From an uncultured Actinomycetes bacterium (lineage in GTDB: Bacteria; Actinomycetota; Thermoleophilia; Gaiellales; JAICJC01), in the NCBI GenBank assembly GCA_963723785.1, contig CAVRSB010000019.1, forward strand, positions 8,459 to 72,458: a stretch of 64,000 nt of DNA, in the 5' to 3' direction. Position numbers and translations under genes: made by a program. Shown here piece by piece: positions 1 through 38,424 of the stretch; positions within the stretch are counted from its first letter, which is position 1; every line of letters starts with the position of its first letter. Below the pieces are notes generated by a model. That model was not told the DNA's origin and searched no databases. It saw only the letters and a list, made by a program, of their open reading frames with translations.

Positions 1-430
1 CGTCCGACGACCCGAATCCGCGCTCTGCCCGCTCCGAGCCGGGAAGCGTGTCGGCCTCCCGCACCTCGAGCTGCGGCAACGCCAGCACGACCAGTTGCGC
101 GATCCGATCGCCGGCGGCCACCTCGAACGCGTGCTCGCGGTCGGTGTTCAGCAGCACGACCTTGAGCTCGCCGCGGTAGCCCGAATCGATCAGCCCCGGC
201 GTGTTCACGATCGAGATGCCGTGTTTGAATGCGAGTCCCGAGCGGGGCTGCACAAACCCGGCATGCCCGGGCGGGATCGCCACCGCCAACCCGGTCGAGA
301 TCACGCGCCGCTGCATCGGCTCGATCACCGCCGCCTCGATACTGGTCAGGTCAAGCCCGGCATCGCCGTCATACGCTCGCTCAGGCACCTGCGCCCGAGG
401 ATCCAACCGTTTGAACACCAGCTCCGTCAC
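1..430 (-). CDS. dut: dUTP diphosphatase (3' end runs off the window)
   Basis: Hand translation of the minus strand: ...AIPPGHAGFVQPRSGLAFKHGISIVNTPGLIDSGYRGELKV...GDRIAQLV...ERGFGSS (dUTPase motifs II-V). GTG at 430 overlaps the hflX stop. Confidence 0.93.
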   Translation of the reverse strand, partial: MTELVFKRLDPRAQVPERAYDGDAGLDLTSIEAAVIEPMQRRVISTGLAVAIPPGHAGFVQPRSGLAFKHGISIVNTPGLIDSGYRGELKVVLLNTDREHAFEVAAGDRIAQLVVLALPQLEVREADTLPGSERAERGFGSSD

Positions 431-1704
431 ACATCCACCCGGTAGTCGTCGTATCGCGACAACAGCTCGCGTGGCAGCCGCGCGCTGACCAGCACACCCT
501 CCTCGCTGTCCTCGCGGGAGGTGATCGGGGCGCCGCTGGCATACAGCGCCGACAGCTCGGCTCCCTGCTTGTGGGGCATCAGCAGCCGCACGTCCACAAA
601 CCGGTCCTGGAAGAACTCGGCGATTCGGTGCTTCAGCTCGTCCAGGTTCTCACCGGTCACGGCCGATACCTGGACAGCCCCTGAGAAGCGGTTTCGCAGC
701 CTCCGCCGTGCGACCTCGTCCAGCTGGTCGATCTTGTTCAGCACCATGATCTGGGGAAGATCATCGGCGCCGATATCCGACAGCACGTTGCGCACCTCGG
801 TGAGCTGATCGACCAGGTCGTCCTCGCCGCCCGACCCGTCGGCCACCAGCAGCACCAGGTCGGCTGCGAGCGTCTCTTCGAGCGTTGCCGCGAACGCCTC
901 CACCAAGCCGTGGGGAAGCTTTCTGATGAACCCGACAGTGTCGGTCACGAGATACGAGCGGCCGTCTTCGCGGAAGGCGCGGGTGGTCGGGTCGAGCGTC
1001 TCGAACAGCCGGTCGTTGACACTCACCTCGGCGCCCGTGAGGGCGTTCAGCAGCGTCGATTTGCCAACGTTGGTGTACCCCGCGAGTGCCACTGTCGGCA
1101 CGGCCCGCCGGGTGCGCTGGCTGCGCATCAACTCGCGGTGGCCGGCCACGTCCTTGAGCCGGGTGCGTAGCAGCACCACTCGCTGCCGAGCCAGCCGGCG
1201 GTCGGTTTCAAGCTGAGACTCACCCGGGCCGCGGGTGCCGACCCCGCCGCCGAGCCGCTCGAGATGCTTCCACATGCCCCGCATCCGCTGCAGGTTGTAT
1301 TGCAGCTGGGCCAACTCGACCTGGAGCTTGCCCTCCGCGGTGTGCGCATGCTGGGCGAAGATGTCGAGGATTACCGCGGTGCGGTCGACCACTCGCATCT
1401 CCAGCCGGTCCTCGAGATGGCGCTGCTGACGGGGAGTGAGCTCGTCGTCGCACACGATCACCTCGGCGCTGACGCGGTCGGCGTACTCCTTCAGCTCGTC
1501 CAGCTTGCCGCTGCCCAGATAGGTCGCGGCGTCGGGTCGGGCGCGGCGCTGCATCATCGTGCCGACCGTCTTCACCCTGGCGGTTCGCAGCAGCTCGCGC
1601 ATCTCGTCGAGATGGGCGTCGCTGGGCTCCGCCGAGGCCACCGTCGCGATCACCACCGCACGCTCGGGAGCGTTTTGGCTGCGATGGTCGATCGGATCTG
1701 CCAC
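427..1704 (-). CDS. hflX: GTPase HflX
   Basis: C-terminal part of ORF 427..2892: ILDIFAQHA, GKLQVELAQL, GPGESQLETDRR, GYTNVGKST, DTVG, NKID. GTG at 1704 lies 6 nt after a TATACT -10 element. Confidence 0.93.
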   Translation of the reverse strand: MADPIDHRSQNAPERAVVIATVASAEPSDAHLDEMRELLRTARVKTVGTMMQRRARPDAATYLGSGKLDELKEYADRVSAEVIVCDDELTPRQQRHLEDRLEMRVVDRTAVILDIFAQHAHTAEGKLQVELAQLQYNLQRMRGMWKHLERLGGGVGTRGPGESQLETDRRLARQRVVLLRTRLKDVAGHRELMRSQRTRRAVPTVALAGYTNVGKSTLLNALTGAEVSVNDRLFETLDPTTRAFREDGRSYLVTDTVGFIRKLPHGLVEAFAATLEETLAADLVLLVADGSGGEDDLVDQLTEVRNVLSDIGADDLPQIMVLNKIDQLDEVARRRLRNRFSGAVQVSAVTGENLDELKHRIAEFFQDRFVDVRLLMPHKQGAELSALYASGAPITSREDSEEGVLVSARLPRELLSRYDDYRVDV

Positions 1705-1724
1705 CGAGCAAGTATAGAGTCGGG

Positions 1725-2892
1725 TCAGCTGACCCGAAGGTGCTGCTCGATCCGCCCCACCGCTTCCCGCAAGCCGGTCATCGGGAAGCGTCAGCGACAA
1801 TCGCACGTAGCCCTCGCCGTTGGGTCCGTAGGCCGAGCCGGGAGAGACCACCACCGCTGCCTGGTCGAGCACCAGCTCCGCGAACGACACCGAGGTATGC
1901 CCCTCGGGCACCGGCACCCAGATGTAGATGGTGCCCTTGGGAGCGGGCACGTCGAGGCCGACCGCGGCCAGCGCCGCGATCACCAGGTCGCGCCGCCGCA
2001 GATACACCTCGCGCATGTCGGCGACGAAGTCCTGCGGCCCCTCCAGCATGGGCACCGCCGCCATCTGGATCGCGTCGAACATGCCGGAGTCGATGTTCGT
2101 CTTGAGCGTCCACAGACCGGCGATCATCTCGGCATTTCCAACCGCAGCACCGACTCGCCAGCCGGTCATGTTGTAGGCCTTTGACAGGGAGAACATCTCG
2201 ATGCCGGCGTCCTTCGCCCCCGGAGCCTCCAGAAAGCTGGGCGCGACGTACCCGTCGAAGGTCAGCTCCGAGTACGCGTTGTCGTGCACAATCGGCACTC
2301 CCCGATCGAGTCCGAACCGGGCCAGGCGCTCGAAGAAGTCGTCCTCGATCACCGCTCCAGTGGGATTGTTCGGGTAGTTGCAGAAGAGCAGATTGGCGCG
2401 ATCGGTGATATCCGGGCCAAACGACTCCAGGTCGGGCTGGAAGTGGTTCTCGGCACGCAGCGGCATCAGTACCGGCTCGGCGCCGGCCAGCGTGGTCGAG
2501 CCGGTATACACCGGATAGCCGGGATCGGCGGCCAGGCAGATGTCGCCAGGGTCGAGCATCGACCAGCACACGTGGGCGACGCCCTCCTTGCCGCCCAGCA
2601 ACGGCAGGATCTCGGTGTCGGGGTCGAGGGTGACGCCGAAGCGCCGCTGATAGAACGTCGCGACCGCTTCGCGAAACCGGGGCCGGCCGCGGTTGGACGG
2701 GTACTGATGGGTGTCGGGCAGCGCCACCTGGCGCTGGGCCTCTGCCACCACCACGTCAGGAGTGGGCAGATCCGGGTCGCCGATGCCGAGCGAGATCACG
2801 TCGATGCCTGCAGCCTTGCGTTCCGCGATCTTTCGCTCCAACTCGGCGAAGAGGTACGGCGGGAGATCCTGGACACGCTTGGCGAGCCGCAT
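1725..2892 (-). CDS. dapL: LL-diaminopimelate aminotransferase (class I/II PLP enzyme); 1-nt insertion near the 3' end
   Basis: PPYLFAE, SLGIGDPD, NYPNNPTG, HDNAY, FSLSKAYNMTGWRVG. Removing one base near 1771 gives ...RLREAVGRIEQHLRVS* with the stop at 1725. Confidence 0.85.
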
Positions 2893-3696
2893 CTAGAGCG
2901 CCTCCAACTGGCCCACGAACAGTGGGTCAAACGTGCCTGCGAGCACGGGCTCGACCGGGCCGGTCATGCGGATATTCAGCTCGTCGTCGATCTCGATCAC
3001 CAGCGTCCCTCCATCGGTGTGCACCGTTACCGGGGAGGCCACGTCGCCGGCCGTGAGGGCCGCGACCGCCGCGGCAGTCGACCCGCTCCCGGATGACAGC
3101 GTCTCCCCCGCCCCGCGCTCCCACACCCGCATCCGGATATCGTTTGGGCCCATGGGGCGGTAGAACTCGACATTCACGCGGTTGGGGAACCATGCATGGT
3201 GCTCAATGTCCGGCCCCAGCTGCGCCAGGTCGAGTTCGTCGACGTCGTCGGCATGGATCACACAGTGCGGATTGCCGACGTTCACAAACGTGTACGCCGG
3301 TGCCGGGGGCGGGCCGTCGCCGGGCGCATGGTCGTCGCCGGTAAGCGCCGCTCGGCCGGCGTCAATGGTGACCGACGTGCCGTCAACAGCACCGGTGACA
3401 ACGCCCTTGACTGTCTCGAGGGTGACCGTTTCGCGGCCGTCGCGGCGACATAGGTAGAAAACTGCAATGCGGCTGCCGTTGCCGGAGAACTCCGCCTGCC
3501 CGCCGTCGGGGTTGTAGATCCGCACGCGTGCATGGGCCTGCTGCGACGGCAGGATCTCGAGGATGCCGTCGGATCCCGCCCCGAAGTCCGGGTGGCAGAT
3601 GCGCCGGACATCGGCCTCGGGGATACCGCCGCTCGGCCCATCGCCTTCAATTACCAGGTAGGCGTTGCCGACGGCCTGGAACTTCTCAAATCGCAT
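2893..3696 (-). CDS. dapF: Diaminopimelate epimerase homologue with both catalytic Cys replaced by Ser
   Basis: MRFEKFQAVGNAY, GAGSDG, IYNPDGGQAEFSGNG, VGNPHCV, FPNRVNVEF, RVWERGAGETLSSGSG, MTGP; located between miaA and dapL. Confidence 0.88.
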   Translation of the reverse strand: MRFEKFQAVGNAYLVIEGDGPSGGIPEADVRRICHPDFGAGSDGILEILPSQQAHARVRIYNPDGGQAEFSGNGSRIAVFYLCRRDGRETVTLETVKGVVTGAVDGTSVTIDAGRAALTGDDHAPGDGPPPAPAYTFVNVGNPHCVIHADDVDELDLAQLGPDIEHHAWFPNRVNVEFYRPMGPNDIRMRVWERGAGETLSSGSGSTAAAVAALTAGDVASPVTVHTDGGTLVIEIDDELNIRMTGPVEPVLAGTFDPLFVGQLEAL

Positions 3697-3716
3697 GACG
3701 GCAGAGGATAGCCGCG

Positions 3717-4119
3717 TCAGCCCTGAAACAGGGATCCCAACACGATGATCGCCCCGAGAACTGCGCACACGATGGCGCAGCCGATGATGATCGGCCAGGT
3801 GGTCGGGACTCCCGCTACCAGCACCACACCGGCGATCAGCGAGCACGATGATCAGCGGCACCCGGTGCACGGGATGCGGTCGCAGCTGCAACACCCTGCG
3901 GCCGGCCCGGTCGGCCAGTACCAGACCGCAGGCCAGCGTGGCCAAAAGCAGCGCTGCCACGACTACCGGGGCGGTCACCCGTTGCTGCCACAGGATCACC
4001 TGATCGCCGGCGGTGCCGACCAGTGCCGAGATCACCAGGGCGATCGGCGCACAAGCAGCCACGATCACGAATGCGTCGCGAGCCTCTCGCACGGCGTCGC
4101 TCTCGCGGCGGTGGCTCAC
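3717..4119 (-). CDS. Hypothetical membrane protein (frameshifted)
   Basis: Several hydrophobic segments; an alternate frame ends ...IIVLGSLFQG* at 3717. Confidence 0.55.
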
Positions 4120-5019
4120 AACAGCTGCTCCACGGCGTCGGCCACGTCCCCGGGCGGGCGGTCGGCTTCCAGAAGGTGGATGTTCGCCACCCTGCGCATC
4201 CAGGTGCGCTGGCGTTTGGCGTAGCGGCGAGTGCGTGTGATCAGGCGGCGGACAGCCTCGTCCTGGTCGATCTCACCGTCCAGCAGCGCGGTCACGTCTT
4301 GCAGCCCGTGAATGCGCGAGGCGGTGTGGGAGAACACGTGGTCCGCTCGGGCCGTTCGCACCTCCTCAACCACTCGTCGCTCGAACATCGCCTGGGTGCG
4401 GGTGGCGATTCGCTGGTCACCGATCGACAGCGGCAGATCGAGGCCAACGATCACGGTGGGTAGGCGGGTGGGTGCGTCCCACAGGCTGTCGGATTCGGGA
4501 GCCAGGCTGGTACCAGCGGCGTGCAGCTCGAGACCGCGTACGACCCGGCGTCGGTCGTTGGGGTGAATCCCCGCAGCGGCAGCCGGATCGACCTGGCACA
4601 GCCGTTGGTAGGCGACCTGCGGGTCGGCGTCATAGAACGCGGCGAAGCGTTCCCGGTCACCCTTCGCCGGCTGGGGCTGGGGGTGGAGGTCGGCGACGGC
4701 GGCGCGCAGATAGAGGCCGCTGCCTCCGGCCATGACCGGCCGCCGTCCGCGCGCGATCACATCGTCTACGGCGGTGTGGGCCAGCCGGCCGAACTCGGCG
4801 ACCGACCCGGAGTGCTCCAGCGCCCACACCCCGACCAGGTGGTGCGGCACTGCGGCCAGTTCGGTCGGGCGACGGCTGGTTGGTCAGGATCGGAAGTCCG
4901 CGATAGGCCTGCATGGCGTCGCAGGAAACGATCTCACCGTCCAGGCGGGTGGCCAGCTCGAGCGCAACCGCACTCTTGCCCGACGCCGTTGGGCCGAAGA
5001 TCGCCACCGCCGGCAGCAT
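4116..5019 (-). CDS. miaA: tRNA dimethylallyltransferase (frameshift near 4860)
   Basis: [22 protein letters not shown] in ORF 4657..5019; [33 protein letters not shown] in ORF 4116..4850. Confidence 0.93.
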
Positions 5020-5021: not shown

Positions 5022-6341
5022 TCAGGCGGCGGCTGCGGAACGCCGGCGACCGGCCAGCGTCTGGCTGGTGGACGAGTCGATCACGACGTTCACCAACTCA
5101 CCCGGCGCTCCCGCACCGGTGAAGTTGACCGCCTTGTTCCCGCGGGAACGGCCCCGCAACACGGACGGGTCGGTGCGGCTGGGCCCCTCGATCAGTACTT
5201 CCTGGACACTGCCTTCGAGCTCATGGTTGCGCCGGGCGGCGTGCTGCTGAACCAGATCGACCAGCCGCTGGATCCGCTCCTTCTTGACGGTGTCGGGCAC
5301 CTGCTGTTCCATCTTGGCGGCTTCTGTGCCGCGCCGCGGCGAGAACACGAACGTGAACGCGTGGTCGTAGCCCACCTCGTCGTACAGCGACAACGTCTCT
5401 TCGAAGTCGGCGTCGGTCTCGCCGGGGAATCCGACGATGATATCGGTGGTCAGCGCGATCTCGGGGATGGCGGCACGCACATTTGCGACCACGGACAGGT
5501 ACCGCTCGCGGGAGTACGTGCGCCGCATCGCCTTGAGCACGCGGGTGGAGCCCGATTGCACCGGCAGGTGGAGCTGCTCGCAGACCGCGTCGCACTCGGC
5601 CATGGCGGCGATTACGTCGGCGCGCATGTCCTTGGGATGGGGGCTGGTGTACCGGATCCGGCCGATCCCGTCGACTGCGTCCAGATCGCGCAGCAGCTGG
5701 GCGAAACTGGTGTCCACCGCCGGTCGCAGATCCCTGCCGTAGGCGTTCACGTTCTGGCCCAGCAAGGTCAGCTCGATCACCCCGTCATCGGCCAGTGCGC
5801 GGGCCTCGGCGACCAGCTCAGCGGGCGGCCGGGAGCGCTCCCGGCCGCGCACACTGGGGACGATGCAGTAGGCGCAGTTGCAGTTACACCCGGTCGAGAT
5901 CTGAAGCCACGCCTGATGCTGTCGATCGCGCTTGAGCGGCAGCGATCCGGCGAAGTTGTCGAAGGTCGAGAAGTGCCCTCGGGGAATCGCTCCGCCGGCG
6001 GTGATGTACTCCCCCAGCCGATGGATGTTGCCGGGGCCGAAGGCGAAATCGACGAACGGAAACTCCTCGAACAGCGAGTCCTTCATCGATTCCGACCAGC
6101 ATCCGCCCACCACGATCAGCTTGTCGGGGTCGCGCTGCTTCGCGCCGCGGGCGTTCATCAGATGCTGAACCAGTCGCTCGTCGGCCTTTTCACGGATGGT
6201 GCAGGTGTTGAATACCAGCACGTCGGCCTCGTCGCTGTCGACCGCCTCCCCCAGTCCCGATGATTCCAGCAGACCCTTGATCCGCTCGGAGTCGTGCACG
6301 TTCATCTGGCAGCCGAAGGTCGTTACCGAGTACGTGCGCAT
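5022..6341 (-). CDS. miaB: tRNA-2-methylthio-N6-dimethylallyladenosine synthase (radical SAM methylthiotransferase)
   Basis: [21 protein letters not shown], radical SAM motif [15 protein letters not shown]-terminal TRAM domain. Confidence 0.96.
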
Positions 6342-6653: not shown

Positions 6654-7808
6654 CTAGATCACGGCACCCGCAGAGACGCCGGCGGCATCCGCATCGATCA
6701 CGATCACCGAGCGAGCGCCCTCGCCCGTGCGCAGGCGGTCGAACGCCTCGTTTATCTGGTCGAGTTCGATCAGATGCGAAACGACATCGCCCATGTCGAG
6801 CCGCCCGTCCGCCGCCAGTCCGATCAGGGCCGGCATCTCGGCCGCCACGTTGGACGACCCGTAGTAACACCCCAGCAGGTTCTTCTCACTGAGCAGATCG
6901 AGCGCCGGCAGCGACACTTCGGTTCCCTTGGGGGCAAGCCCTACCACCACAGCTGACCCGCCCGGCCGGATCATGTCCCATGCCTGGCGGATGGTGGCCG
7001 GAAGCCCCACCACCTCGAAGGCGTAGTCGACACCGCCGGGCACCAGCCCCTTCACCGCATCGACCGCATCCATCACCGATCCGTCGACCGTGTCGGTGGC
7101 TCCCCGTCGCACCGCCCGTTCCAGCTTGTCCGCAGCTCGGTCGACGGCGATGATGCGACCGGCCCCGGCCAGCCTCGCGCCCGCGATCACCTGCAGGCCG
7201 ACTCCGCCGCAGCCGATCACACACACGCTCTCACCGACTCGCACACCGGCCGTGTTGCGCACCGCCCCCACGCCCGTCACCACTCCGCAGCCGAGCAGAG
7301 CCGCCTGCCACAGGGGCAGGGGCGCCGACAGCGGGATGGCGGCGGCGGAGGGCACCACGCACCGGTCGGCGAAGCACGACACGAAGTTGAAATGTTGCAC
7401 CGCGCGGCCGTCGCTGAGGCTCAGCCGAGACGTGCCGTCCAGCAATGTCCCCCGCCAGGCGTGGTCGGCGGCCTCGGTACACAGGTGAAACCGCCCGGCC
7501 CGACAGGCTGAGCAGGTTCGGCAGGGCGGCACGAAGCAGAAGACCACCGGATCGCCCGGCGCCACGTGGGTCACCCCCTCGCCGACCGCCTCCACCACCC
7601 CCGCCCCCTCGTGGCCCAGCACGATCGGCCAGCGACCGCTCCCCAGATGGCCGTCGGCCAGGTGGAGATCCGAGTGGCACACGCCGGCCGCCGCCACCCG
7701 CACAAGCACCTCACCGGCTTTGGGCGGCGCCAGCAACAGCTGCTCACACACGAGGGCGGTACCTGCCTCGTGCAACACGGCCGCGGTGATCGGAATCGAG
7801 TCGCTCAT
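6654..7808 (-). CDS. Zn-dependent alcohol dehydrogenase, class III/formaldehyde-dehydrogenase-like
   Basis: GVCHSD, GHEGAG, structural-Zn CRTCSAC...C, GCGVVTGVGA, GCGGVG; start MSDSIP overlaps the upstream stop. Confidence 0.92.
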   Translation of the reverse strand: MSDSIPITAAVLHEAGTALVCEQLLLAPPKAGEVLVRVAAAGVCHSDLHLADGHLGSGRWPIVLGHEGAGVVEAVGEGVTHVAPGDPVVFCFVPPCRTCSACRAGRFHLCTEAADHAWRGTLLDGTSRLSLSDGRAVQHFNFVSCFADRCVVPSAAAIPLSAPLPLWQAALLGCGVVTGVGAVRNTAGVRVGESVCVIGCGGVGLQVIAGARLAGAGRIIAVDRAADKLERAVRRGATDTVDGSVMDAVDAVKGLVPGGVDYAFEVVGLPATIRQAWDMIRPGGSAVVVGLAPKGTEVSLPALDLLSEKNLLGCYYGSSNVAAEMPALIGLAADGRLDMGDVVSHLIELDQINEAFDRLRTGEGARSVIVIDADAAGVSAGAVI

Positions 7809-8914
7809 GCCACCCGCCACTGCTCCAGCGCATCGAAGTCGGGTTCGATGCCGAGGCCCGGCCCCGGCGGCGGGGCGATGGTGCCGTCTGCGGCGATCTC
7901 GACCGGCGCCGGCAAAAGCCAATCGCGTGCCGCTGCACTCCACTCAGGCGGGTCGAAGGGCACTTCCAGGTAGCCGGCGGTCGAGAATCCCAGTGCGGCG
8001 TGCAGGTTGACGACCAGCCCATAGCCGTTCGACCAGGTATGCGGCGACCACGCTCGCCGGTGCAGATCGGCGAGGGCCGAGACGCGCCGGCACCCGCCGA
8101 TACCGCCCGCCAGCACCACGTCTGTCTGAATCACATCCACACCACCCTGGACGACCAGGTCACGTGCCTCGTGCGCCTGTCGCACCATCTCGCCGGCCGC
8201 GAGCCGCAGGTCGGTGCGGCGGCGAAGCGCGGCGTAGCCGTCGATGTCATCGCTGGCCAGTGGCTCCTCCAGCCAGTACACGTCCAGTGGCTCGAGCGCC
8301 CGGGCACACTGAGCGGCCTCGGCCACATCCCACCGCGGCCGCAGATCTCCAGGCATCCGCCAGCCTTGGTTGGCGTCCACCATGATGTCCATCCCCGGCC
8401 CCACGGCGTCGCGCACGTGAGCGACGGTGTCGATGTCCGCCCGCCAGTCGCCCAGCCCGAACCGCAGCTTGATCGCGCCCACACCGGCGTCGCGCAGGGC
8501 CACGGCCCGCCGCGCCCGCTCGTCCGCGTCCACCATGTGGGCGGCCGATGCGTAGGCAGCGATCCGCTCTCGCCGGCCTCCGAGCAGCTGCCACAACGGC
8601 CGGTCGAGCGCCCGCCCGACGAGATCCCACACCGCCGCCTCGAGTGTCCAGGGCCGGCTTCCGTGGAAGTCCACCGTCTCGCACAGCTCCCGCACCACCT
8701 CGGTGCGGAACGGGTCGACGCCCACCAGCAACTGCTCCAGCAGCTCCCGGTCGGGCAGGGCATCACCGCTGGCAGTGCCCGTCACCCCCTCGTCGGTCAC
8801 GACCGTCACCAGCGTGGCCTCCTGGAAGCGCCGAGGCTCTGGATCCCAGGCGGCGCTCAGGGGAGGATCGATCGGATGTCGGTACCGGCGCGTCTCGACT
8901 GCGGTGATGCGCAC
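7805..8914 (-). CDS. Mandelate racemase/muconate lactonizing enzyme (enolase superfamily) protein
   Basis: AVWDLVG, KLR, metal ligands MVDANQG / WLEEP / AGE, SPH, PPGPGLGI; GTG start at 8914. Confidence 0.9.
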   Translation of the reverse strand: MRITAVETRRYRHPIDPPLSAAWDPEPRRFQEATLVTVVTDEGVTGTASGDALPDRELLEQLLVGVDPFRTEVVRELCETVDFHGSRPWTLEAAVWDLVGRALDRPLWQLLGGRRERIAAYASAAHMVDADERARRAVALRDAGVGAIKLRFGLGDWRADIDTVAHVRDAVGPGMDIMVDANQGWRMPGDLRPRWDVAEAAQCARALEPLDVYWLEEPLASDDIDGYAALRRRTDLRLAAGEMVRQAHEARDLVVQGGVDVIQTDVVLAGGIGGCRRVSALADLHRRAWSPHTWSNGYGLVVNLHAALGFSTAGYLEVPFDPPEWSAAARDWLLPAPVEIAADGTIAPPPGPGLGIEPDFDALEQWRVA

Positions 8915-9455: not shown

Positions 9456-11511
9456 CTAGCCCTCGCCGCCCACCGCGGTCGGCGACGAGGGTGCAGCCTG
9501 CACCCGGCGCAGCTCCTCGAGTGGGATGTGACAGCGGATGGCGTGACCGGGCTCAGCCTCGGCCAACGGCGGCTCGGTGGTCTCGCAGATGTCACCGATC
9601 TTGCGCGGACAGCGAGTGTGGAACACGCATCCCGTCGGTGGGTCGGCGGGACTGGGCAGCTCCCCTTCCAACCGGATCCGATCCCCTTCGCTGCCGTCCA
9701 GGCTGGGTACAGCCGAAAGCAACGCTTCGGTGTAGGGATGGTGCGGCGCGGAGAACACCGCGTGGGCGTCGCCGAGCTCCATCACCCGTCCCAGATAGAG
9801 CACGCAGATCCGGTCGGACAGGTACCGCACCACGCCGAGGTCGTGGCTGATGAAGAGATAGGCCACGCCCTCCTTGCGCTGCAGCTCGTACAGCAGGTTC
9901 AGGATCGCAGCCTGCACCGACACGTCCAGCGCCGAGGTGGGCTCGTCGCACACCACCAGATTGGGATTCCCCGCGAACGCGCGTGCGATCGCCACCCGCT
10001 GCTTGAGCCCGCCAGACAGCTGCACCGGCCGCATGCCGAGGTATCGATCGGCCAACCGCACCGACCTGGTGAGCTCCACCAACCGGTCATCGCGGGCCTT
10101 GCCCCGCAGCCCGGCCAGCTTGGACAGCGACCGGCCCACCAGCCGGCGGACCGTGTGCCGCCGGTTCAGCGCAGAGTCGGGGTTTTGAAAGACGATCTGG
10201 ACCGCCTTGACCTGGTCGCTGGAACGCTTCTTGGTGGTGCCGGCAAGCGGCGCACCGGACAGCTCGAGGGTCGTACCCGAGTCCGGCTGGAGGATCCCCA
10301 GGAGTACCTTGGCCAGCGTCGTCTTGCCGCTGCCCGACTCACCCACCAGCCCCAGCGTCTCACCTGCGCGGATGCTCATGTCTACGCCGGCGAGGGCGTG
10401 GATGTCGGTGCCCGACACCCGGAACGTCTTGCTCAGATCCTTGGCGCTGAGCAGTGGCTCGAATGTGCGCTGGGCGACCGCGGTCAGGTCGCCACCTTCG
10501 ACATGCGGCAGCCTCGGTGCCTGCTCGTGGAAGTGGCAGCGGGACCCGCGCAGCGCGGTGACCGGGTACATCGGAGGCGGCTCGGTGCGGCAGCGATCCT
10601 CCACCAGCCCACAGCGGTCGGCGAAGATGCAGCCGGGGATGTCGGCTCCGGGTGAGGGCAGGAACCCGGGGATGGTGTCCAGCCAGCCCTCGTCCTTCAA
10701 TCGCCCCCGGCGGGGGATGCAGCGCAGGAGTCCAACCGTGTAGGGATGGCGGGGCTCTTCGAACACCTCGATCGCCGGCCCCTGCTCGACCATCTCGCCG
10801 GCATACAGCACGCCGACCCGGTCGCACATCTTGGCGATCACGCCCAGGTTGTGGCTGATGAAAAGCAACGACGTCGAGAGCTCCTCGCGGAGCGCCGAGA
10901 CGAGGTCCAGCACCTCGGCTTCGACGGTGGCGTCCAGGCCGGTGGTGGGCTCGTCCAGGATCAGCAGGGCCGGCTCGACCGCCAGCGCCATCGCGATCAC
11001 CACCCGCTGCTGCATGCCGCCGGAGAGCTGGTGCGGGTAGCGATCCATGACATTGCCCGGATCGGAGATACGCACCCGCTTGAGCGCGTCCTCAGCCCGC
11101 TCCTTGGCCTCCTTGGAGCCGGTCCCGCTGACCTCGAACACCTCGGCCACCTGCCGACCGATCCGCATTGAGGGGTTGAGTGCACGGGATGGATCCTGGT
11201 ACACCATCGACACGCTGTTCGAGCGCATCTGGCGCAGCTCGGAATCGCTCAGGTCGTAGGGATTGCGCCCGTCGATCAGGATCGAACCGCTGGTGACGCT
11301 GCCGTTTCGCGGCAGGTAGCGCACCAGCGCGAGTGCGACCGTCGATTTACCGCATCCGGATTCGCCCACCAGGCCGAACGATTCGCCTCTGCCGACTTCG
11401 AACGAGACTACCGCGAATTGCTGCCCGATCGCTGCCGCGGACGCGATAGGCGATCTCGAGCTGATCGACCGCCAATGCAGCGTTCTCGACTGGCAGCTCG
11501 GCTGCGCTCAT
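9456..11511 (-). CDS. Peptide/nickel-family ABC transporter ATP-binding protein with two fused ATPase domains (frameshift near 11410)
   Basis: Two Walker A motifs (GESGCGKS, GESGSGKT), two LSGG signatures, two DEPT, two HPYT oligopeptide C-terminal domains; N-terminus MSAAELP is in another frame. Confidence 0.93.
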
Positions 11512-12395
11512 TCGTCCACCACCTTCTCGATCGCGTCGGAGATGAGGTTGACCGAGATCACCAGCGACGCAATGGCGGCGGCCGCGAACAGCACCTCCCA
11601 CCAGTATCCGGCCTGCACGACGGAGATGTTGTTGGAGATGTCAACTCCCCAGTCCGGGGTCGGCGGCGGAATGCCGAATCCCAGAAACGAGAGTGTCGCC
11701 ACCGTGAATACCGCATATCCCAGCCGCACGGTGAACTCCACCAGCACGGGTGAGAGCACGTTGGGCAGCAGCTCGGAGATCATGATGTAGAAGCCGTTCT
11801 CGTTACGCAGCCGAGCGGCCGTGATGTAGTCCAGCTCGCGCTCCTGGATCACCGCCGTGCGCACCGTGCGCGCGATCAGGGGCGCGAAGATGAAGCCGAT
11901 GCAGATGGTGACGGTGATGTTGGACGGCCCCAGCGCAGAGATCACGACCACGGCGGTGATGACCAGCGGGAGCGCCAGCAACGCGTCCACGAACCGGCTG
12001 ATGCCCTCGTCCACCCATCCCCGCATGTAGCCGGTGATCAGTCCGATCAGCGTCCCCAGGATCGTGCCAAGCACGGTCGCGACGAAGGCCACGATCAACA
12101 CCGCGCGGACGCCCGTGATCGTCCGCGAGAAGATGTCGCGGCCGATCTGGTCGGTGCCGAACCAGTGGCTGCTCGACGGGCCGGCGTCGGTGTGCAGCAA
12201 GTCCGTTTCGAACGGTGTGTAGGGGACGATCCGATAGCCGATCACGGCGCACACGATCCAGAACCCCAGGATCGACGCGCCGATCAGGAAGGTCTTGGAC
12301 TTACGCAGTTCGCGCAGCTGCTCACGGCGCACCTGTTTGGCATCCGAGTCGGCGGCACCGGCGACGGCAGGCTCGTCGGCGCTGACCGCGCTCAC
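11508..12395 (-). CDS. ABC transporter permease (DppC/OppC-like)
   Basis: HWFGTDQIGRDIFSR, EAA-like loop DYITAAR, PPPTPDWG. Confidence 0.93.
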   Translation of the reverse strand: MSAVSADEPAVAGAADSDAKQVRREQLRELRKSKTFLIGASILGFWIVCAVIGYRIVPYTPFETDLLHTDAGPSSSHWFGTDQIGRDIFSRTITGVRAVLIVAFVATVLGTILGTLIGLITGYMRGWVDEGISRFVDALLALPLVITAVVVISALGPSNITVTICIGFIFAPLIARTVRTAVIQERELDYITAARLRNENGFYIMISELLPNVLSPVLVEFTVRLGYAVFTVATLSFLGFGIPPPTPDWGVDISNNISVVQAGYWWEVLFAAAAIASLVISVNLISDAIEKVVDE

Positions 12396-13345
12396 TTGTC
12401 ACCCCCGGCTCGCAGCCGCGGGTTCAGCAGCGTGTAGGCGATGTCGGCGCACAGCGTTCCGATCAGGTAGACGACGCCGATAGTGAGTACCGCCGCCTCG
12501 AGCATCGGGAAGTCGTGGTCGTGGGCGGCCTTGTACGTGAGTGAGCCGATGCCCTGATAGTGGAACAGGTATTCGACCACCAGCAGACCGCCGATCAGGT
12601 AGCCGACCTGGGTCGCGACCACAGTGATCGTGGGCAGAAGCGCGTTGCGAAGCACGTGCCTGCGTACCACAGTCTTGGTCGGCAGGCCTTTCAGCACCGC
12701 CGTGCGGGTGTAGTCGGAAGCGAGCGCCTCGATCGTTCCCGCCCGCGCCATCCGCATGATGTAGCCGAACAGCACGCACGCGATCGCGATCGCCGGCAGG
12801 ATCAGGTGGAAGATCTGGGTGAACGGGCCGGCGCCGTCAGGCGCGGTGGCGCTCACCGGCAGCACGTTCAGCCAGATGCCAAAGATCATGATCAGAAACA
12901 CTCCCGAGACGAACTCGGGCAAGCCCAGCAGTGACAGGCCGAACACGCTGATCGACCGATCCGCCCACCCACCCGACTTGAGCGCCGCGATCACCCCCGA
13001 AAGGATCGCCAGGGGGACGCAGATCAAAAACGCCACCAGCGCGAGCTTGAGCGAGTTTACGAGGGCGGTGGTGATCAACGGCCTGATCGGCTCGTGGTAG
13101 GAGTACGACGTGCCCATGTCGCCGTGGAGCAGGTTGGTGACCCAGTCGGTGTACTGCGTCACGATCGGGCGATCGACGCCCAGCTGGTGGTTGAGTTGGG
13201 CGACGCCCTGCGGCGATGCGAGATTTCCCAGGATTACCCGACCGGGATTTCCAGGCAGCTTCTGCCCGGCCAGAAACACGATCATCGACAGAATCCAGAG
13301 CGTGATCAGGGCCAGGCCCAAGCGCTTGAGGATGTAGACCGCCAT
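12392..13345 (-). CDS. ABC transporter permease (DppB/OppB-like)
   Basis: YILKRL, LPGNPG, GDMGTS, DYTRTAVLKGL, HVLRNALLP, D.PML, LNPRLR. Confidence 0.93.
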   Translation of the reverse strand: MAVYILKRLGLALITLWILSMIVFLAGQKLPGNPGRVILGNLASPQGVAQLNHQLGVDRPIVTQYTDWVTNLLHGDMGTSYSYHEPIRPLITTALVNSLKLALVAFLICVPLAILSGVIAALKSGGWADRSISVFGLSLLGLPEFVSGVFLIMIFGIWLNVLPVSATAPDGAGPFTQIFHLILPAIAIACVLFGYIMRMARAGTIEALASDYTRTAVLKGLPTKTVVRRHVLRNALLPTITVVATQVGYLIGGLLVVEYLFHYQGIGSLTYKAAHDHDFPMLEAAVLTIGVVYLIGTLCADIAYTLLNPRLRAGGDK

Positions 13346-13363
13346 CTCGTCCTCCGAGATCGA

Positions 13364-13390
13364 GCCGGTGGCGGGCGGGCCGCCACCGGC
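13364..13390 (-). other. Intergenic stem-loop between the substrate-binding protein and permease genes
   Basis: GCCGGTGGCGG (13364-13374) pairs with CCGCCACCGGC (13380-13390): 11-bp stem, no U tract; typical of an mRNA-stabilising hairpin. Confidence 0.65.
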
Positions 13391-13402
13391 ACGTCATGAT
13401 GC

Positions 13403-15100
13403 TTACGTTGCGGCGGGGCCCGCGCCGTTGAGGAAGATCTGCCCCATGCCGGTGGTGACGACTCCCCCAATGGCTGCCTTGGACACGCTGATCGCGTCGA
13501 ACCAGTAAGGCAGAATCAGCGGGGTCTCCTCCAGCAGCAGGGTTTGGATCTGCCCGGCCAGCGTGCGCTGAGTCGAGAGATCGAGTGCAGCCACGTACTG
13601 GTTGACGAGCTTGTCGTATTGAGAGTTCTTGAAGTGGGCCGCATTCCAGGTGCCGTCCGACTTGAGCGGCGCGTTCAAGAACACGTTGGGGACGCCTCGG
13701 TGTCCGTAGTCGACCAGGCTCATCGCTCCGTCCAGCCAGTCGGACTTCCCATACACGCTGTCGCCGTAGTAGTGGGTCTGATCCTCGATATGGAGGTTGA
13801 TGGTGATGTTGATCGCCGCTGCGGCCTCCTTGATGATCTGGGCCAGGTCGGGGATCTCCTGGTAGATCTCGGCGTACAGGTCGGTCGTGAACCCGTTGGG
13901 ATAGCCGGCGTCAGACAAAAGCTGCTTGGCCTTTTCGAGGTCCTGCACCCGCTGGGGCACGTTCGGGTCGGTCGAGCGGAAGATCGGCGCGAACGGGTTG
14001 TCATTTCCAAGCTGCGCGTAGCCCTTGAACAGTGCCTGTGAGATCTCCGGCCGGTTCAGCGACAGTGCCATCGCTACCCGCACGTTCTTGTCGTTCCACG
14101 GCTTCTGATCGTTGCGCATCGACAGCTCGCGGTGCTGCGAGGACTTGGTCACCCACAGCTTGTAGTCGGGGCTGTTGAGTACCGCCTCGGCACCCTGAGG
14201 CACGATCAGGTTGACGATATCGACGTCGCCGCCGGACAGCGCCAGGATCTGCGGCTGCTGCTTGTCGTAGAAGATGTGTTGCAGCTTGGCCGGCAGCACC
14301 TTGCCGCCCCACCAATTCGGGTTGGGGGCAAACGTCGCTCCCTGGCCGGTCTGGTAGGAGGTCATCTTGAACGGTCCGGTTCCGGGGAAGGTCTTGACCC
14401 ACTTGGTGTAGTCGGACCCGTTGGGCACGATGATCATGTTGTAGTTGTCGGACGAGATCAGGTAGGGGAAGTTCCCGACAGGCCCCTCGAGGTTGAACTC
14501 CACGGTCTGATCGTCGATCTTCTTGACGCCGTCCTTGACGAGCACGTTGGTGAAGGCCGACGCGGCGTTCACATACACGTCCGGGTCGGTGTTCGATTGG
14601 AACGAGTAGACGACGTCATCGGCGGTCATCGGCGTGCCGTCGTTGAAGGTCACGCCCGGGCGGAGGTTGTACGTCCACACCGACGCATCGGCGTTGGGCT
14701 TGAAGCTGGTGGCCAGCATCGGCTTGAGGATGTTGGTTTTGGGATCGTTGAAGCTGAGGAACTCGCCGGTCTGCTGGATCATCGTCAGACCGCCCTCGTC
14801 GGCGATGCTGAGCGGGTTGATGTCGCCGGCCGGGACGACACCCGCGATCCGCAGCGTCGCGCCGGCGGCGGGTTTGACCGCGGCGGCGGAGCTGGAGGGT
14901 GCGGTGGAACCGCTGGAGTTGGCGCCGCCGCAAGCGGTCACGATCGCTCCCAGAAGCGGGATCGAGATGCCGATGATCGACCCTCGCTTGAGGAACTCGC
15001 GGCGGTTGATGTGGCCGGCCACGTACTCGTCGATTACGTGGTTTTCGAGTTCGCTTCGGTTCTGGCGCAACTCGTCGAGCTTTTGGGGGTTCCGCTCCAT
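13403..15100 (-). CDS. ABC transporter substrate-binding protein, family 5, Tat lipoprotein
   Basis: Twin-arginine INRREFLK, lipobox VTAC, LRPGVTFNDGTPMTADDVVYS, GTGPF. Confidence 0.93.
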   Translation of the reverse strand: MERNPQKLDELRQNRSELENHVIDEYVAGHINRREFLKRGSIIGISIPLLGAIVTACGGANSSGSTAPSSSAAAVKPAAGATLRIAGVVPAGDINPLSIADEGGLTMIQQTGEFLSFNDPKTNILKPMLATSFKPNADASVWTYNLRPGVTFNDGTPMTADDVVYSFQSNTDPDVYVNAASAFTNVLVKDGVKKIDDQTVEFNLEGPVGNFPYLISSDNYNMIIVPNGSDYTKWVKTFPGTGPFKMTSYQTGQGATFAPNPNWWGGKVLPAKLQHIFYDKQQPQILALSGGDVDIVNLIVPQGAEAVLNSPDYKLWVTKSSQHRELSMRNDQKPWNDKNVRVAMALSLNRPEISQALFKGYAQLGNDNPFAPIFRSTDPNVPQRVQDLEKAKQLLSDAGYPNGFTTDLYAEIYQEIPDLAQIIKEAAAAINITINLHIEDQTHYYGDSVYGKSDWLDGAMSLVDYGHRGVPNVFLNAPLKSDGTWNAAHFKNSQYDKLVNQYVAALDLSTQRTLAGQIQTLLLEETPLILPYWFDAISVSKAAIGGVVTTGMGQIFLNGAGPAAT

Positions 15101-15243
15101 GGTCACCTGCTTCTTTTGGGGACGACGCGGGTCAATGTACGGTCGCGATCGTCTCGTCGACTACAGCCCACATCCGAAATCTCTTTCATACTGCCGAACT
15201 CGTGTCAAGGGTTGAATCTCGCACGCTGGCAACGCTGGACGTG

Positions 15244-16345
15244 CTAGCCGAGTTCGATCAGCGTGCGAGCGCCGTGGCCGGCCAGCATATCGCCAAACGC
15301 CTCGTTGATCCGTCGCAGCGGGTAGGTCGATCCCTTGAGACGGTCGAGATCGAGTCGCCCATCCATGTACAGGTCGAGCACCATCGGCATGTCCAGGTGG
15401 GGCCGGCACGAGCCGTACAGGCTCCCGGTCACGATCTTTTCGTCGCGAACCAGCTCGGCCCCGGGAAGCTCCACGATTGCTCCCAGCGGCGGGATACCGA
15501 TGCACACCAGCGTGCCACCCCGGCAGACAGCGTGCCAGGCGGTTGCGGCCACTCCCCGCGCCCCTGAGGCTTCGAAACCGTAGTTCGGCGCCCCTGCCTG
15601 CGGTCAGGTCACGCACGGCCTCCACCGGGTCGCAGTCGGTGGGGTCGAGCGCGTGTGTGGCTCCCAGATCGATCGCGAGCCGGCGGCGCTCCTCGGCCGG
15701 ATCGACGGCGATCACGATGGAAGCCCCGACGAGCCCGCAGGCTTGAATCGCAGACAGGCCCACGCCGCCTGCCCCGAACACCACCACCGAACTCCCTGTG
15801 CGCACCATCGCGCGGTTGAGCACCGCGCCGATCCCGGTCATGACCGCGCAGCCCACCAGGGCTGCGATATCGAACGGCGCGTCGGGCCGGATCGGGACGC
15901 AGCTTGCCTCGGGTACCACGGTGGACTCGGCGAACGTCGAGAGAAAGGAGTAGTGGTGGATCGGCTTGCCGTCCAGCGACAGCCGGGTGGTGCCGTCCAG
16001 CAGCGTCCCGGCCAGCAGCGCAGGCGATGCGCTCTCGCACAGGCTCGGCCGGCCGCCCACGCACGGTCCGCAGCGGCCGCAGGCGGGCAGCCACGAGAGC
16101 ACCACGTGATCACCCGGAGCGACCGTGGTGACGCCTTCTCCGACGCTCTCCACCACGCCCGCGCCTTCGTGGCCGAGCACGGCCGGCAGCGGGCTGGGCG
16201 TATCGCCGGTGACCGTATTCCAGTCGCTGTGGCAAACGCCGCTGCGGTGCAGCCGCACACACACCTCGCCGGGTGCGGGCGGGGCGAGGTCGACCTCGAC
16301 CACGTCAAAACCTGAGTTCGGCTCTCGCAATACCGCCGCTAGCAT
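15244..16345 (-). CDS. Second Zn-dependent alcohol dehydrogenase, class III-like (frameshift near 15580)
   Basis: GVCHSD, GHEGAG, CGRCGPC...C, GCAVMTGIGA, GAGGVG; C-terminus TGSLYGS...INEAF in ORF 15244..15552. Confidence 0.9.
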
Positions 16346-16356
16346 CGGGCGGGAGA

Positions 16357-16888
16357 CTAGCGGCCGGCGCCGAGCTCTTCCACATAGGTGGCCGATCGCC
16401 GCGCCAGCGCCCCGTCCTCGGCCACTTCGTAGTAGCCCATCCGCCACAGCGGCGGCGAGTAGAGATGCAGCGACGTGGCTGCCTCGGCCCCGGCATGGCG
16501 GACGTTGTGGATGCGTGACGCATCAAAACGGAAGCCCTGCGCCGGCCCGGTACTCGGTCACGGCCAAATCGGGCTGCCCGATCACCAGTCGCTCTTCGGC
16601 GATCCTGCCCCGCACCACCCGCACCGCTCCCGACGAGAGATCGTGGTCGTGCAGGCCGGTGTCCTGGGACGGCATCCAGCAGATCAGCCACGCCTCCAGG
16701 TGATGATCGCGGCGCAGCCGCACGTAGTGGCGCTCGTCGGCGCGTGTGCTGTCTCCAGGTCGCGCCACAGCTCGGGGCGTGCGGCCAGCGCATCGGCCAG
16801 CGCCTCGAGCTCGTCGTGGCTCGAGATCGCGATCGGCGGTCTCGCGCTCGGCCAGCCAGTGATCGATGCCGGCGCTGGGCTCAGTCAT
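16357..16888 (-). CDS. Cysteine/thiol dioxygenase family cupin (frameshifted)
   Basis: Across frames: EAWLICWMPSQDTGLHDH...RIHNV...TSLHLYSPPL (3-His triad plus S-H-Y motif); stop at 16357. Confidence 0.82.
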
Positions 16889-17852
16889 CGGGCACCTCCG
16901 TTGGGGTTGAGCAGCACGGGCGGGGTTCTGCTCGAGGATCAGATCGGCCGCGCCCGAGCCGAGTGCCTCCACCGCCCTGCGGGTCGGCTCCCATGCGATC
17001 ACCGGGTGATCGCTGCCATACACCACCTGTTCGGCGCCGTAGGTCGAGAGCGTGAGCTCGAGCGCCTCACGGCCCGAGCTGGCGGTGTCGAGAAACAGGT
17101 TGGGATCGATCGAGCCCTGCTCACCGCTGAAGACCCGCCAGCGGTGCTCCAGCAGCGGCGCGCCGCCGGCCAGGATCGCCCACACGGTACGCAGCTGCGG
17201 GTGGAGCCCGCGCCCCACCGCGCGCCAGGTGAAGAATGCGCGCTGCGACCAGGCCGGATACTGGCCCACGCGACGTCCACCACCCCGGGAGCGACGTCGG
17301 GGGCGGGCTGCTGGAGGCGTCCATGGTGCCGGCCCGGGATGGACGAAGCAGCGGCCGGTCGCGGCCCTCGCACCAGGTCGAGCAACGGGCTCCACCGGTC
17401 CGACCGCCTCGGGGGTGGCCAGTGTCTCCGACGGCACGGTCACTCCGGCGAAGCCGCGATCGAGCAGCGTCAGACGACCGGTGCGAGCGACGCCTCGATG
17501 TCGTCGAGCACGACTGCCGCCATCGCCTGCAGGCGGCCTCCCGGACTCGCCGCGCGACCTGCTCGATGCCGGTGTTGTAGGCGTCCACCAGCGGGTGGGC
17601 CTGCTCGGCGGGGAGCGCCTCGCAGCCCACCGGGGTGGAGATCGAGATCACCGCCGAGTCGATCTCCTGGCGATCGAGTTCGGTGATCCGCCGCTGCGGG
17701 GTCGTGGTTTCGCAGGTCGATGTGACAACTCGGGCTCCCATCCCAGTTCCAAGAACATCCGTCGGCCCGCGCCGCGCAGGCAGGGGGGCGCTGTGCGGCG
17801 TTGAGAGCGCCGAGATGAACGCTTCCGGCCACAGGTGCTGATGGATATCCAC
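16885..17852 (-). CDS. Amidohydrolase_2 family protein (multiple frameshifts)
   Basis: DIHQH, SISTPVG, FVHP, AILAGG, FLDTAS, VYGSDHP, ILEQN spread over three frames. Confidence 0.78.
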
Positions 17853-17880
17853 GCGCGGAATGTTGCGCCTCCGAGAGTCT

Positions 17881-17896
17881 TGTGAAACGATTCACA
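17881..17896. promoter_or_regulatory. LacI-type operator TGTGAAACGATTCACA
   Basis: Near-perfect palindrome with a central CG, matching the LacI/GalR pattern TGWAANCGNTTWCA, between the divergent regulator and amidohydrolase genes. Confidence 0.75.
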
Positions 17897-25558: not shown

Positions 25559-25646
25559 AGTGATCACCTTCCTGGGCCGCACTGTGCGCCGAGACGCAGG
25601 GGGACGAAGTGTACGAGCCGCGTCCGACGGATCCACCGTGCGGACA

Positions 25647-25660
25647 CGAACACGCGTTCG
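25647..25660. promoter_or_regulatory. LexA SOS box upstream of recA
   Basis: CGAAC-ACGC-GTTCG matches the Gram-positive GAAC-N4-GTTC box; a TAGGAT -10 lies at 25669-25674 on the minus strand. Confidence 0.85.
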
Positions 25661-25693
25661 ATGGGAGAATCCTAGACGCCCCACCGGACGCAC

Positions 25694-36813: not shown

Positions 36814-37710
36814 CAGGTGGTGGCCGCCGGTAGCAAGCCCATGCTCTCGAGCGCGCGGCTGACTTCGGCGGCTTCGTTCTCGGACACCTCGATCAGCGGC
36901 AGCCTGAGCCCGCCGACGTCGTGGCCGAGCAGATTCAGCGCGTACTTGAGGGGGATCGGATTGGTGGTCACGGCGAGCGCATCGTAGAGCGGTCGCAGCG
37001 ATCGGTCGACCACACGTGCGCCGTCGAGGTCGCCGGAGTGGACCAGCTCGATCATCCGGCGGATCTGGGGACCGGCGAGATGGGAGGCCACGCAGATGCC
37101 ACCGACCGCGCCGATCTCGGTGAACGGCAGCACCAGGTCGTCGTTTCCGGCGTACAGGGCAAGGTCGGTCTCGTCCACGATCCGCTGGGCTTGATCGAGA
37201 TCGGGCGTGGCCTGCTTGACCGCCGTCACATTCGGAATCCGGGCGATTTCGATCAAGCAGGTCGGGCTCGAGATTCACCACCACCCGCTGCGGGATGTTG
37301 TAGATGATCACCGGCCGTCCGTCGGCGGCCTCGGCGATCGCCGTGAAATGCGCCAGGATGCCCGCCGGCGGTGGCTTGGAGTAGTACGGCGTGACCGCCA
37401 TCACCGCGTCCACGCCGGTGGCCAGCGCAGACCGTGTCAGTGCGACCGAGTGGTGCGTGTCGTAGCTGCCGGTGTTGGCGACCACCGTCGCCGCCCCGCC
37501 GATCTCGCTCACGATCGTCTCCAACAGGTCGAGCTTCTCCCGGTCGGAGACGGTCGGCCCTTCGCCGGTGGTGCCGCACACCACCACACCGTCGGAGCCG
37601 TTGTCCACCAGGAACCGAGCCAACCGGCGGGCGCTTCCGTGATCGACCGATCCGTCGCTGCCAAACGGCGTGACCATCGCGGTCAGCAGTGCTCCCAGGC
37701 CCGTACTCAC
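36813..37710 (-). CDS. dapA: 4-hydroxy-tetrahydrodipicolinate synthase (frameshift near 37255)
   Basis: TAMVTPF, GTTGE, TPYYSKP, YNIP.R; Schiff-base AVKQA and TNPIPLK in ORF 36813..37256. Confidence 0.94.
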
Positions 37711-37757: not shown

Positions 37758-38424
37758 TCAGAGCACTGCGTCCAGGCCGATGGTGAGTCCCGGTTCGAGT
37801 TTGGCGATGCCGCGCACCGCCAGCAGCACCCCGGGCACGAATGCCCCTCGAGAGCGTGGTGTCGTGACGGATCGTGAGCGTCTCCCCCATTCCGCCGAAG
37901 ATCACCTCTTGGTGGGCGATCAAGCCCGGCAGCCGGACGCTGGAGATGGGAACGTCACCGCCCATGCGCGCGGCGGTGGCAAGCGCCGTGCCGGACGGGG
38001 CGTCGCGTTTGCCACTGCCGTGAAGCTCGACGATGTGGGCGTCGGGCAGAAGCTCGTGCGCCTGCTCCGCCATCCGCATCATCAGCACCGCCCCGATCGC
38101 GAAGTTGGGGGCATACAGGATCCGCACTCCGGCCGCGCGCGCGGCGGCGTCGGCGTTGGCCTGGGCGGAGGCCGAAAGCCCAGTGGTGCCGAGCACCAGC
38201 GAGACGCCGGCGGCTGTGGCCAGCGCGCAGGCCTCGGCGGCAGCCTCCGGCACCGTGAAGTCGATCACCACATCACAGTCGGCGGCCGCCAGTGCGTCGG
38301 CCAGCGTGACGCCCAGCGTCGGGGAGCTCGTGGCCACCAGCTCCAGATCCGGTGCTGCCTCGATGGCCGGCTGCAGCGCCTTTCCCACTTGACCGGTCGC
38401 CCCCGAGAGGAGTATGCGGATCAT
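37758..38424 (-). CDS. dapB: 4-hydroxy-tetrahydrodipicolinate reductase (frameshift near 37850)
   Basis: GATGQVG, IDFT, GTTG, APNFAIG, E.H...KRDAPSGTA, SVRLPG..AHQEV, IRHD. Confidence 0.93.

Follow-up and report, generated by a model that had tools for sequence, protein, structure and literature searches.

The enzyme diaminopimelate epimerase (DapF) acts between the LL and meso forms of diaminopimelate (DAP) and, in textbook accounts, requires a thiol/thiolate pair. A dapF homologue from a Gaiellales-type (Thermoleophilia) actinobacterium has serine at both of the positions that the catalytic cysteines normally occupy, and the question raised by this locus is whether its product is a working epimerase, a related protein put to another use, or the outcome of an error in the sequence. 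The gene lies in a stretch of 64,000 nucleotides (hereafter the window) that belongs to contig 19 of a genome bin of 1.78 Mb, which is 54% complete.

Identity of the gene and its catalytic dyad

The gene and its two diagnostic codons are located as follows:

2893..3696, minus strand: dapF coding sequence of the Ser/Ser type, 267 amino acids plus stop, matched by TIGR00652 and, in two stretches, by PF01678
3484-3486, minus strand: codon 71, TCC (serine), at the first catalytic cysteine position (AEFSGNG), placed by HMMER alignment and the minus-strand sequence
3091-3093, minus strand: codon 202, TCC (serine), at the second catalytic cysteine position (ETLSSGSG), placed in the same way

Translated from a GTG at 4119, the minus-strand open reading frame (ORF) that ends at 2893 would give 408 amino acids. 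Its DapF-matching part begins at the ATG at 3696, which is residue 1 in relatives, and the open frames of some relatives comprise only 275 amino acids. The 267-residue translation of 2893-3696 is designated P0001. It scores 207.3 bits against TIGR00652, the NCBIfam equivalog model for DapF (cut-off 114.65), and 161.2 bits against PF01678, the Pfam DAP_epimerase model (cut-off 34.7). With both cut-offs passed and two DAP_epimerase domains present, P0001 belongs to the DapF family as the models define it.

In HMMER alignments, Ser71 and Ser202 stand opposite both catalytic cysteines of 2otn, 9mro, and 3ejx, within the cGNG and aCGtG motifs. P0001 therefore lacks the canonical Cys/Cys dyad and has the hallmark of the natural Ser/Ser DapFs, namely, a DapF sequence intact in other respects whose two catalytic positions are serine. 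Translation and alignment bear out the original prediction, which had read TCC at codons 71 and 202 and QAVGNAY as the N-terminal motif (residues 7-13 of P0001). Protein Atlas look-ups returned generic "diaminopimelate epimerase" clusters only.

Gene neighborhood and pathway context

The genes around dapF and the further DAP pathway genes of the window are the following:

5022..6341, minus strand: miaB (TIGR01574, 452 bits, cut-off 355)
4116..5019, minus strand: miaA, split into overlapping ORFs at 4116-4850 and 4657-5019 (TIGR00174, 139.5 bits, profile positions 49-286)
3697..4119, minus strand: small upstream ORF that looks hydrophobic by eye and shares its frame with dapF, with no stop between them
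1768..2892, minus strand: dapL, LL-diaminopimelate aminotransferase, residues 1-375 of a fused ORF of 821 amino acids (NF006756, 538.5 bits, cut-off 507)
427..1659, minus strand: hflX GTPase (TIGR03156, 426 bits over residues 412-759 of the 821-residue ORF)
37252..37689, minus strand: N-terminal half of dapA, in frame with RNase J, probably by an indel (TIGR00674, 143 bits, positions 2-146 of 286)
37972..38424, minus strand: dapB, with the first 176 or so of 270 profile positions in frame (TIGR00036, 145 bits, cut-off 122)

The ATG of dapL overlaps the stop codon of dapF. The dapL product passes the cut-off of NF006756 and scores 531.5 bits against TIGR03540, below the cut-off of 593 for that model. 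In the window, dapL and hflX make up the single 821-residue ORF (427-2892, minus strand); in the relatives G002, G005, and G013, they are two genes in separate frames, those of G002 being 97-99% identical to their counterparts in the window. The fusion probably reflects an indel of one base close to codon 375, be it in the assembly or in the organism itself. All three relatives examined (G002, G005, and G013) share the conserved block miaB-miaA-small ORF-dapF-dapL-hflX-dut, and in them residues 1-92 of the small ORF between miaA and dapF are conserved at 55-97%.

The window is rich in indel-type frame breaks, none of which falls within dapF. The frame-broken regions lie at 4116-5019, 17819-18860, 25026-27063, 28743-31164, 35143-37719, and 37723-39918. 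The miaA, cinA, and ftsK genes and a LacI-type regulator gene are split, RNase J is joined to the N-terminal half of dapA, and dapB has an in-frame truncation. These splits and fusions fit an indel-prone (long-read) assembly, and the fused dapL/hflX together with the split miaA, cinA, and ftsK agree with the earlier view that the errors of this sequence are indels. The window also contains a peptide/nickel-type ABC transporter operon (9459-15160), bordered on either side by a Zn-dependent alcohol dehydrogenase of the NDMA-dependent/class III type (6657-7943 and 15164-16522, minus strand); the two dehydrogenases are paralogues of each other.

G002, G005, G013, and G007 are 93-100% complete, and in these four relatives PF01678 has no match above the cut-off other than the domain pair of this gene; two extra matches in G002, at E values of 0.39 and 0.55, are regarded as noise. 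All four near-complete relatives thus have a single DapF-type gene. The genome of the window is only 54% complete, so its single-copy status rests on these relatives. LysA, which requires meso-DAP, scores above its cut-off in four of the five genomes searched, including that of the window, and the LysA candidate of G007 falls below the cut-off and appears to be split. The meso-DAP dehydrogenase Ddh exceeds its cut-off in none of the five. Further afield, TIGR00652 matches one gene only, the Ser/Ser one, in five of five Ser/Ser-bearing genomes of other lineages (Patulibacter, a closed Solirubrobacteraceae chromosome, Bacteroidales, Sulfurihydrogenibium, and Rokubacteria), for which completeness figures are not given. 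The gene thus has the pathway context of a DapF, with dapL adjoining, dapA and dapB in the window, LysA present, and Ddh found in none of the five genomes. The placement of dapL directly downstream and the presence of dapA and dapB, the latter two as fragments, are as originally described, and the proposed search for a Cys-type dapF or a ddh gene yielded neither a second DapF in the four near-complete relatives nor a Ddh in the five genomes.

Predicted structure and substrate site

The AlphaFold2 model of P0001 (built on 52 Ser/Ser sequences; pLDDT 95.3, pTM 0.93) predicts the pseudo-symmetric architecture of DapF, in which there are two domains and each acid/base residue stands at the N-terminus of a helix. 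Ser71 directly precedes helix 72-86 of the model and Ser202 directly precedes helix 203-215; the catalytic cysteines of DapF are likewise located at helix N-termini. The best PDB matches of the model are DapFs (9mro_A, TM 0.90, and 3ejx_A, TM 0.89), and O-ureidoserine racemase (7vdy), PhzF, and proline racemases rank below them.

The residues surrounding the dyad were compared between 85 Cys/Cys and 80 Ser/Ser DapFs. Columns that are at least 90% conserved in the Cys/Cys proteins have the same majority residue in the Ser/Ser proteins, except for the dyad itself and positions 58, 177, 205, and 206. P0001 departs from the conserved columns only at positions 58, 201, and 206 and at variable sites of the 95-98 type. 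It contains N11, D43, N62, D64, G72, N73, R76, N142, P143, H144, N175, E193, R194, T199, and G203, all of which except H144 are kept in 98-100% of the Ser/Ser proteins; position 144 is His in 67 of the 80 rows and Gln in 13. In the 85 Cys/Cys rows, conservation likewise reaches 98-100% at N11, N62, D64, G72, N73, R76, N142, P143, N175, E193, R194, and T199. The motifs of the substrate site (GN near the N-terminus, NxDG, GNG-R, GNPH, the N of the NxEF strand, and ERG-G-T) are all present in the sequence of P0001, which suggests that the DapF substrate site is retained. The conserved residues around the dyad presumably include those that contact DAP.

These observations bear on the possibility that P0001 is a repurposed DapF-fold enzyme acting on another substrate or catalyzing another reaction, such as a different amino-acid epimerization or an elimination, with meso-DAP supplied by an unrecognized non-homologous enzyme. 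The DapF fold does host other chemistries, as the O-ureidoserine racemase, PhzF, and proline racemase-like structures among the matches attest, and the residues at positions 58, 70, 77, and 177 set Ser/Ser proteins systematically apart from Cys/Cys ones. Against this, P0001 scores as a DapF equivalog rather than as a mere relative, retains all of the canonical conserved residues around the dyad, is encoded beside dapL in a conserved block, and is the only DapF-type protein of near-complete relatives in which LysA is present and Ddh absent; the single TIGR00652 match in each of the five other-lineage genomes points the same way. DAP epimerase activity has, moreover, been published for Ser/Ser DapFs, as reported in PMC13728532. 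Repurposing is therefore unlikely, and the paralogue variant of it raised by the original prediction finds no support, with no second DapF in the near-complete relatives and every substrate-site residue kept.

Conservation of the serines and selection on the gene

A dapF homologue was found in 40 of 40 relatives searched, and both dyad sites could be read in each:

f1 (the family of the query, seven genera): Ser/Ser in 24 of 24 genomes
f3: Ser/Ser in four of four genomes
f4: Ser/Cys in four of four genomes
f2: Cys/Cys in four of four genomes
f5: Cys/Cys in four of four genomes

Ser/Ser is thus the state of 28 of the 40 order-level relatives. The proposed alignment with relatives accordingly finds the dyad to be lineage-wide in the family of the query, and the argument that two substitutions at exactly the catalytic codons would not arise by chance proves right.

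Public named genomes were scanned with a pattern that demanded serine at site 1 only, and at least 599 stretches matched. Site 2 is also serine in all 80 of the best 80 of these loci. Among the matches listed, the closest are Gaiellales metagenome-assembled genomes (MAGs; 59-89% identity), followed at 39-46% identity by Solirubrobacterales, Conexibacter, Thermoleophilaceae, and the cultured Patulibacter americanus DSM 16676; further Ser-type matches listed come from Bacteroidales, Prolixibacteraceae, Sulfurihydrogenibium, and Rokubacteria MAGs. Across all loci, the serine codons are TCG (54), TCC (51), TCT (2), TCA (2), AGT (2), and AGC (1) at site 1 and TCC (47), TCG (46), AGC (9), TCT (4), TCA (2), and AGT (1) at site 2, such that all six serine codons are used at the dyad.

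Pairwise dN/dS of dapF, calculated against five same-genus loci, ranges from 0.087 to 0.153. The gene is under purifying selection, and the pseudogene reading is rejected on the basis of these values and of the conservation of the dyad in relatives. A genome of the same genus (G004) carries, beside an intact Ser/Ser copy, a second, broken dapF copy (locus L044, G004:C24:158132-158851) that contains an in-frame TGA and is frameshifted across the first catalytic motif. The G004 bin has approximately 5% contamination, and the origin of the broken copy is uncertain.

An intact but catalytically dead protein, retained for a non-catalytic role such as that of a protein partner, is even less probable than repurposing. 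Such a role has a precedent in E. coli DapF, which activates RppH (PMC13728532; the PDB entries 6d13 and 6vck are among the structural matches), and single Cys-to-Ser changes are reported to hinder catalysis in canonical DapF (PMC12039745). However, S71, S202, N11, N62, N73, N142, N175, E193, and R194 are kept in 80 of 80 Ser/Ser rows, which would be unexpected of a dead enzyme, dN/dS is about 0.1, and the genomes would be left with no source of meso-DAP for LysA.

The notion that the serines are a sequencing or assembly artifact and the true codons TGC can safely be dismissed, since, despite the many indel-type frame breaks in the window and the single substitution that separates each TCC from TGC, the same two serines occur in all 24 genomes of the family and in all 80 of the independently assembled public loci chosen for serine at site 1 only (the best 80 of at least 599), where TCN and AGY codons alike encode them, a recurrence that leaves base-calling error untenable as an explanation.

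A probable working epimerase with two serines

The Ser/Ser protein is most likely a working LL/meso-DAP epimerase, as judged from genome content and residue conservation, because it is the only DapF of near-complete relatives, occurs with LysA and without Ddh, is encoded in a conserved block, and keeps the DapF residues outside of the dyad. More specifically, we infer with considerable confidence that the dapF product serves this Gaiellales-type actinobacterium as its single housekeeping LL-/meso-DAP epimerase and uses a Ser/Ser pair to do so. The thiol-free epimerase offered as one option by the original prediction thus gains support from the lineage-wide Ser/Ser dyad, purifying selection, the sole DapF in genomes with LysA and without Ddh, and the active Ser/Ser DapFs in print (as cited in PMC13728532).

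In the pathway envisaged here, DapL, encoded by the neighboring gene, would supply LL-DAP, which the Ser/Ser DapF would convert to meso-DAP for LysA and hence lysine; the meso-DAP probably also feeds peptidoglycan. Within a normal DapF fold and pocket, Ser71 and Ser202 would act as the acid/base residues, facing the α-carbon from opposite sides. The chemistry may be a two-base 1,1-proton transfer as in the Cys/Cys enzymes, with a serine alkoxide/hydroxyl pair operating in a closed, water-excluding site. Given that a single Cys-to-Ser change hinders canonical DapF, the activity of a Ser/Ser enzyme would depend on other tuning.

Distribution and evolution of the dyad

A survey of the best 150 representatives at 50% identity, drawn from 17,300 hits at E values up to 0.001, found Cys/Cys in 83, Ser/Ser in 57 (58 with the query), Ser/Cys in four, and Cys/Ser in one; five of the 150 are partial or frame-broken. 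Two trees, a FastTree built from 173 rows and an IQ-TREE quick tree built from 73 rows without the two catalytic columns, concur on three Ser/Ser groups. The first is a Thermoleophilia clade (support 95) that contains the Cys/Cys proteins of f2 and the Ser/Cys proteins of f4 as sisters (98-99). The second is a large multi-phylum clade (support 98-100) of the AEKSGNGLR/GYTLASGSSS type, and the third is a small clade nested among Cys/Cys enzymes (support 99).

The Ser/Ser label requires four changes on either tree, and supported branches force at least two of these changes on the FastTree and at least three on the IQ-TREE quick tree. Forcing the 32 Ser/Ser rows of the quick tree together lowers lnL by 51.6 (AU p = 0.041). 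A single origin of the Ser/Ser dyad is thus rejected marginally, on a quick tree and for a group that was defined once an earlier tree had been inspected; no number of origins and no direction of change is claimed.

The Gaiellales in the wide sense encompass Cys/Cys DapFs in two families (8/8 genomes), Ser/Cys in one (4/4), and Ser/Ser in two (28/28), and these three states fall into one well-supported clade together with the Ser/Ser enzymes of Solirubrobacterales and Thermoleophilaceae. The mixed dyad, with serine at site 1 and cysteine at site 2 (AEVSGNG/ETQACGSG), occurs in all four f4 genomes (G027, G031, G035, and G039), each of which has one match to the query (loci L029, L030, L035, and L033). 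It is conceivable, though we hold it only tentatively, that the single-copy DapF of this order passes through a natural stepwise series between thiol and hydroxyl dyads while remaining essential, a series that would include a working mixed Ser/Cys epimerase.

Second-shell residues

The raw residue frequencies of Ser/Ser and Cys/Cys proteins differ strongly at positions 58, 70, 77, 177, and 13 of the query. Tyr13 is not specific to Ser/Ser proteins, as Tyr is also found in 34 of the 85 Cys/Cys proteins. Three of the other positions read as follows:

Position 58: Met in 78 of 85 Cys/Cys proteins, Leu or Val in 72 of 80 Ser/Ser proteins, Val in the query
Position 70: Met in 69 of 85 Cys/Cys proteins, Lys, Leu, or Phe in Ser/Ser proteins, Phe in the query
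Position 77: Cys in 59 of 85 Cys/Cys proteins, Ile in 64 of 80 Ser/Ser proteins, Ile in the query

The median number of methionines is 4 in Ser/Ser proteins vs 8 in Cys/Cys proteins, and that of cysteines is 4 vs 6. Fewer oxidizable residues would fit the idea that the Ser/Ser enzymes resist oxidation. This loss is a lead and not a result, because sign tests for co-variation of residue and dyad (p of 0.5 or more) have no power with two independent contrasts on supported branches and four on all branches.

Significance

Natural Ser/Ser enzymes indicate that the DapF fold can drive α-proton abstraction with hydroxyl groups, a point published in 2025 (as cited in PMC13728532). In Thermoleophilia, the Ser/Ser form would be the sole housekeeping epimerase rather than a spare for times of stress. 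Automated annotation by TIGR00652 names the Ser/Ser protein DapF and does not flag the different dyad. Inhibitors directed at the cysteines of DapF, such as aziridino-DAP (described in PMC12039745), would not be expected to alkylate Ser/Ser enzymes. The mixture of Cys/Cys, Ser/Cys, and Ser/Ser dyads at the level of one order also constitutes a convenient natural set for finding the second-shell residues that retune the site.

Comparison with known systems

The canonical Cys/Cys DapFs (EC 5.1.1.7), including those of Anabaena (9MRO), B. anthracis (2OTN), A. thaliana (3EJX), and H. influenzae (1GQZ), share with P0001 the family model, the domain pair, the fold (TM 0.80-0.90), the conserved site residues around the dyad, and the pathway role. 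They differ in having cysteine at both acid/base positions, where P0001 has serine, and P0001 has V58, F70, and I77 at positions where Met or Cys is found in 92%, 81%, and 81% of the 85 Cys/Cys proteins, respectively. The Anabaena Cys/Cys enzyme is described in PMC12039745.

The C73S and C217S laboratory mutants of H. influenzae DapF (PDB 2Q9H and 2Q9J, both among the structural matches of the P0001 model) resemble P0001 in bearing serine at a catalytic position of the DapF scaffold. They are, however, single substitutions in a thiol-tuned enzyme, in which catalysis is hindered according to PMC12039745, whereas P0001 is a natural double replacement maintained by selection.

A precedent for a hydroxyl base exists outside of the family in the aspartate/glutamate racemase EcL-DER, which has a Thr/Cys pair (reviewed in PMC8142540). 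Like P0001, EcL-DER is of the cofactor-independent amino-acid racemase/epimerase type and has a hydroxyl residue in place of a catalytic cysteine; unlike P0001, it belongs to another fold family, has only one of the two residues replaced, and is effectively unidirectional, as that review describes it.

The closest counterparts are the active DapFs with two catalytic serines and the same fold reported by Lamer et al. (Lamer T, van Belkum MJ, Chen P, et al., J Mol Biol 437(21):169375, 2025, as cited in PMC13728532), which share with P0001 the DapF fold and serine at both catalytic positions. Searches of the PDB with P0001 and with a Ser/Ser member of the large clade matched 17 sequences, none of which is a natural Ser/Ser DapF chain. 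According to PMC13728532 (Proteins, 2026), the genome of Anabaena sp. YBS01 carries a Cys/Cys DapF alongside a Ser/Ser one, and replacement of serine by cysteine inactivates the latter; the same source suggests that the pair may help in coping with oxidative stress, the physiological relevance of which awaits validation. The arrangement described here differs, as the Ser/Ser gene is the only DapF of the near-complete relatives and the only one seen in the genome of the window.

Ser/Ser DapFs are thus a known kind, in print since 2025, and the gene described here is a further member; the novelty implied by the original prediction is for this reason unsupported. The passages on Ser/Ser DapFs in PMC13728532 make no mention of a mixed Ser/Cys epimerase. 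Two points may go beyond the print record, namely, that Ser/Ser DapF occurs as the sole copy across Thermoleophilia and that one order harbors single-copy DapFs of the Cys/Cys, Ser/Cys, and Ser/Ser types side by side.
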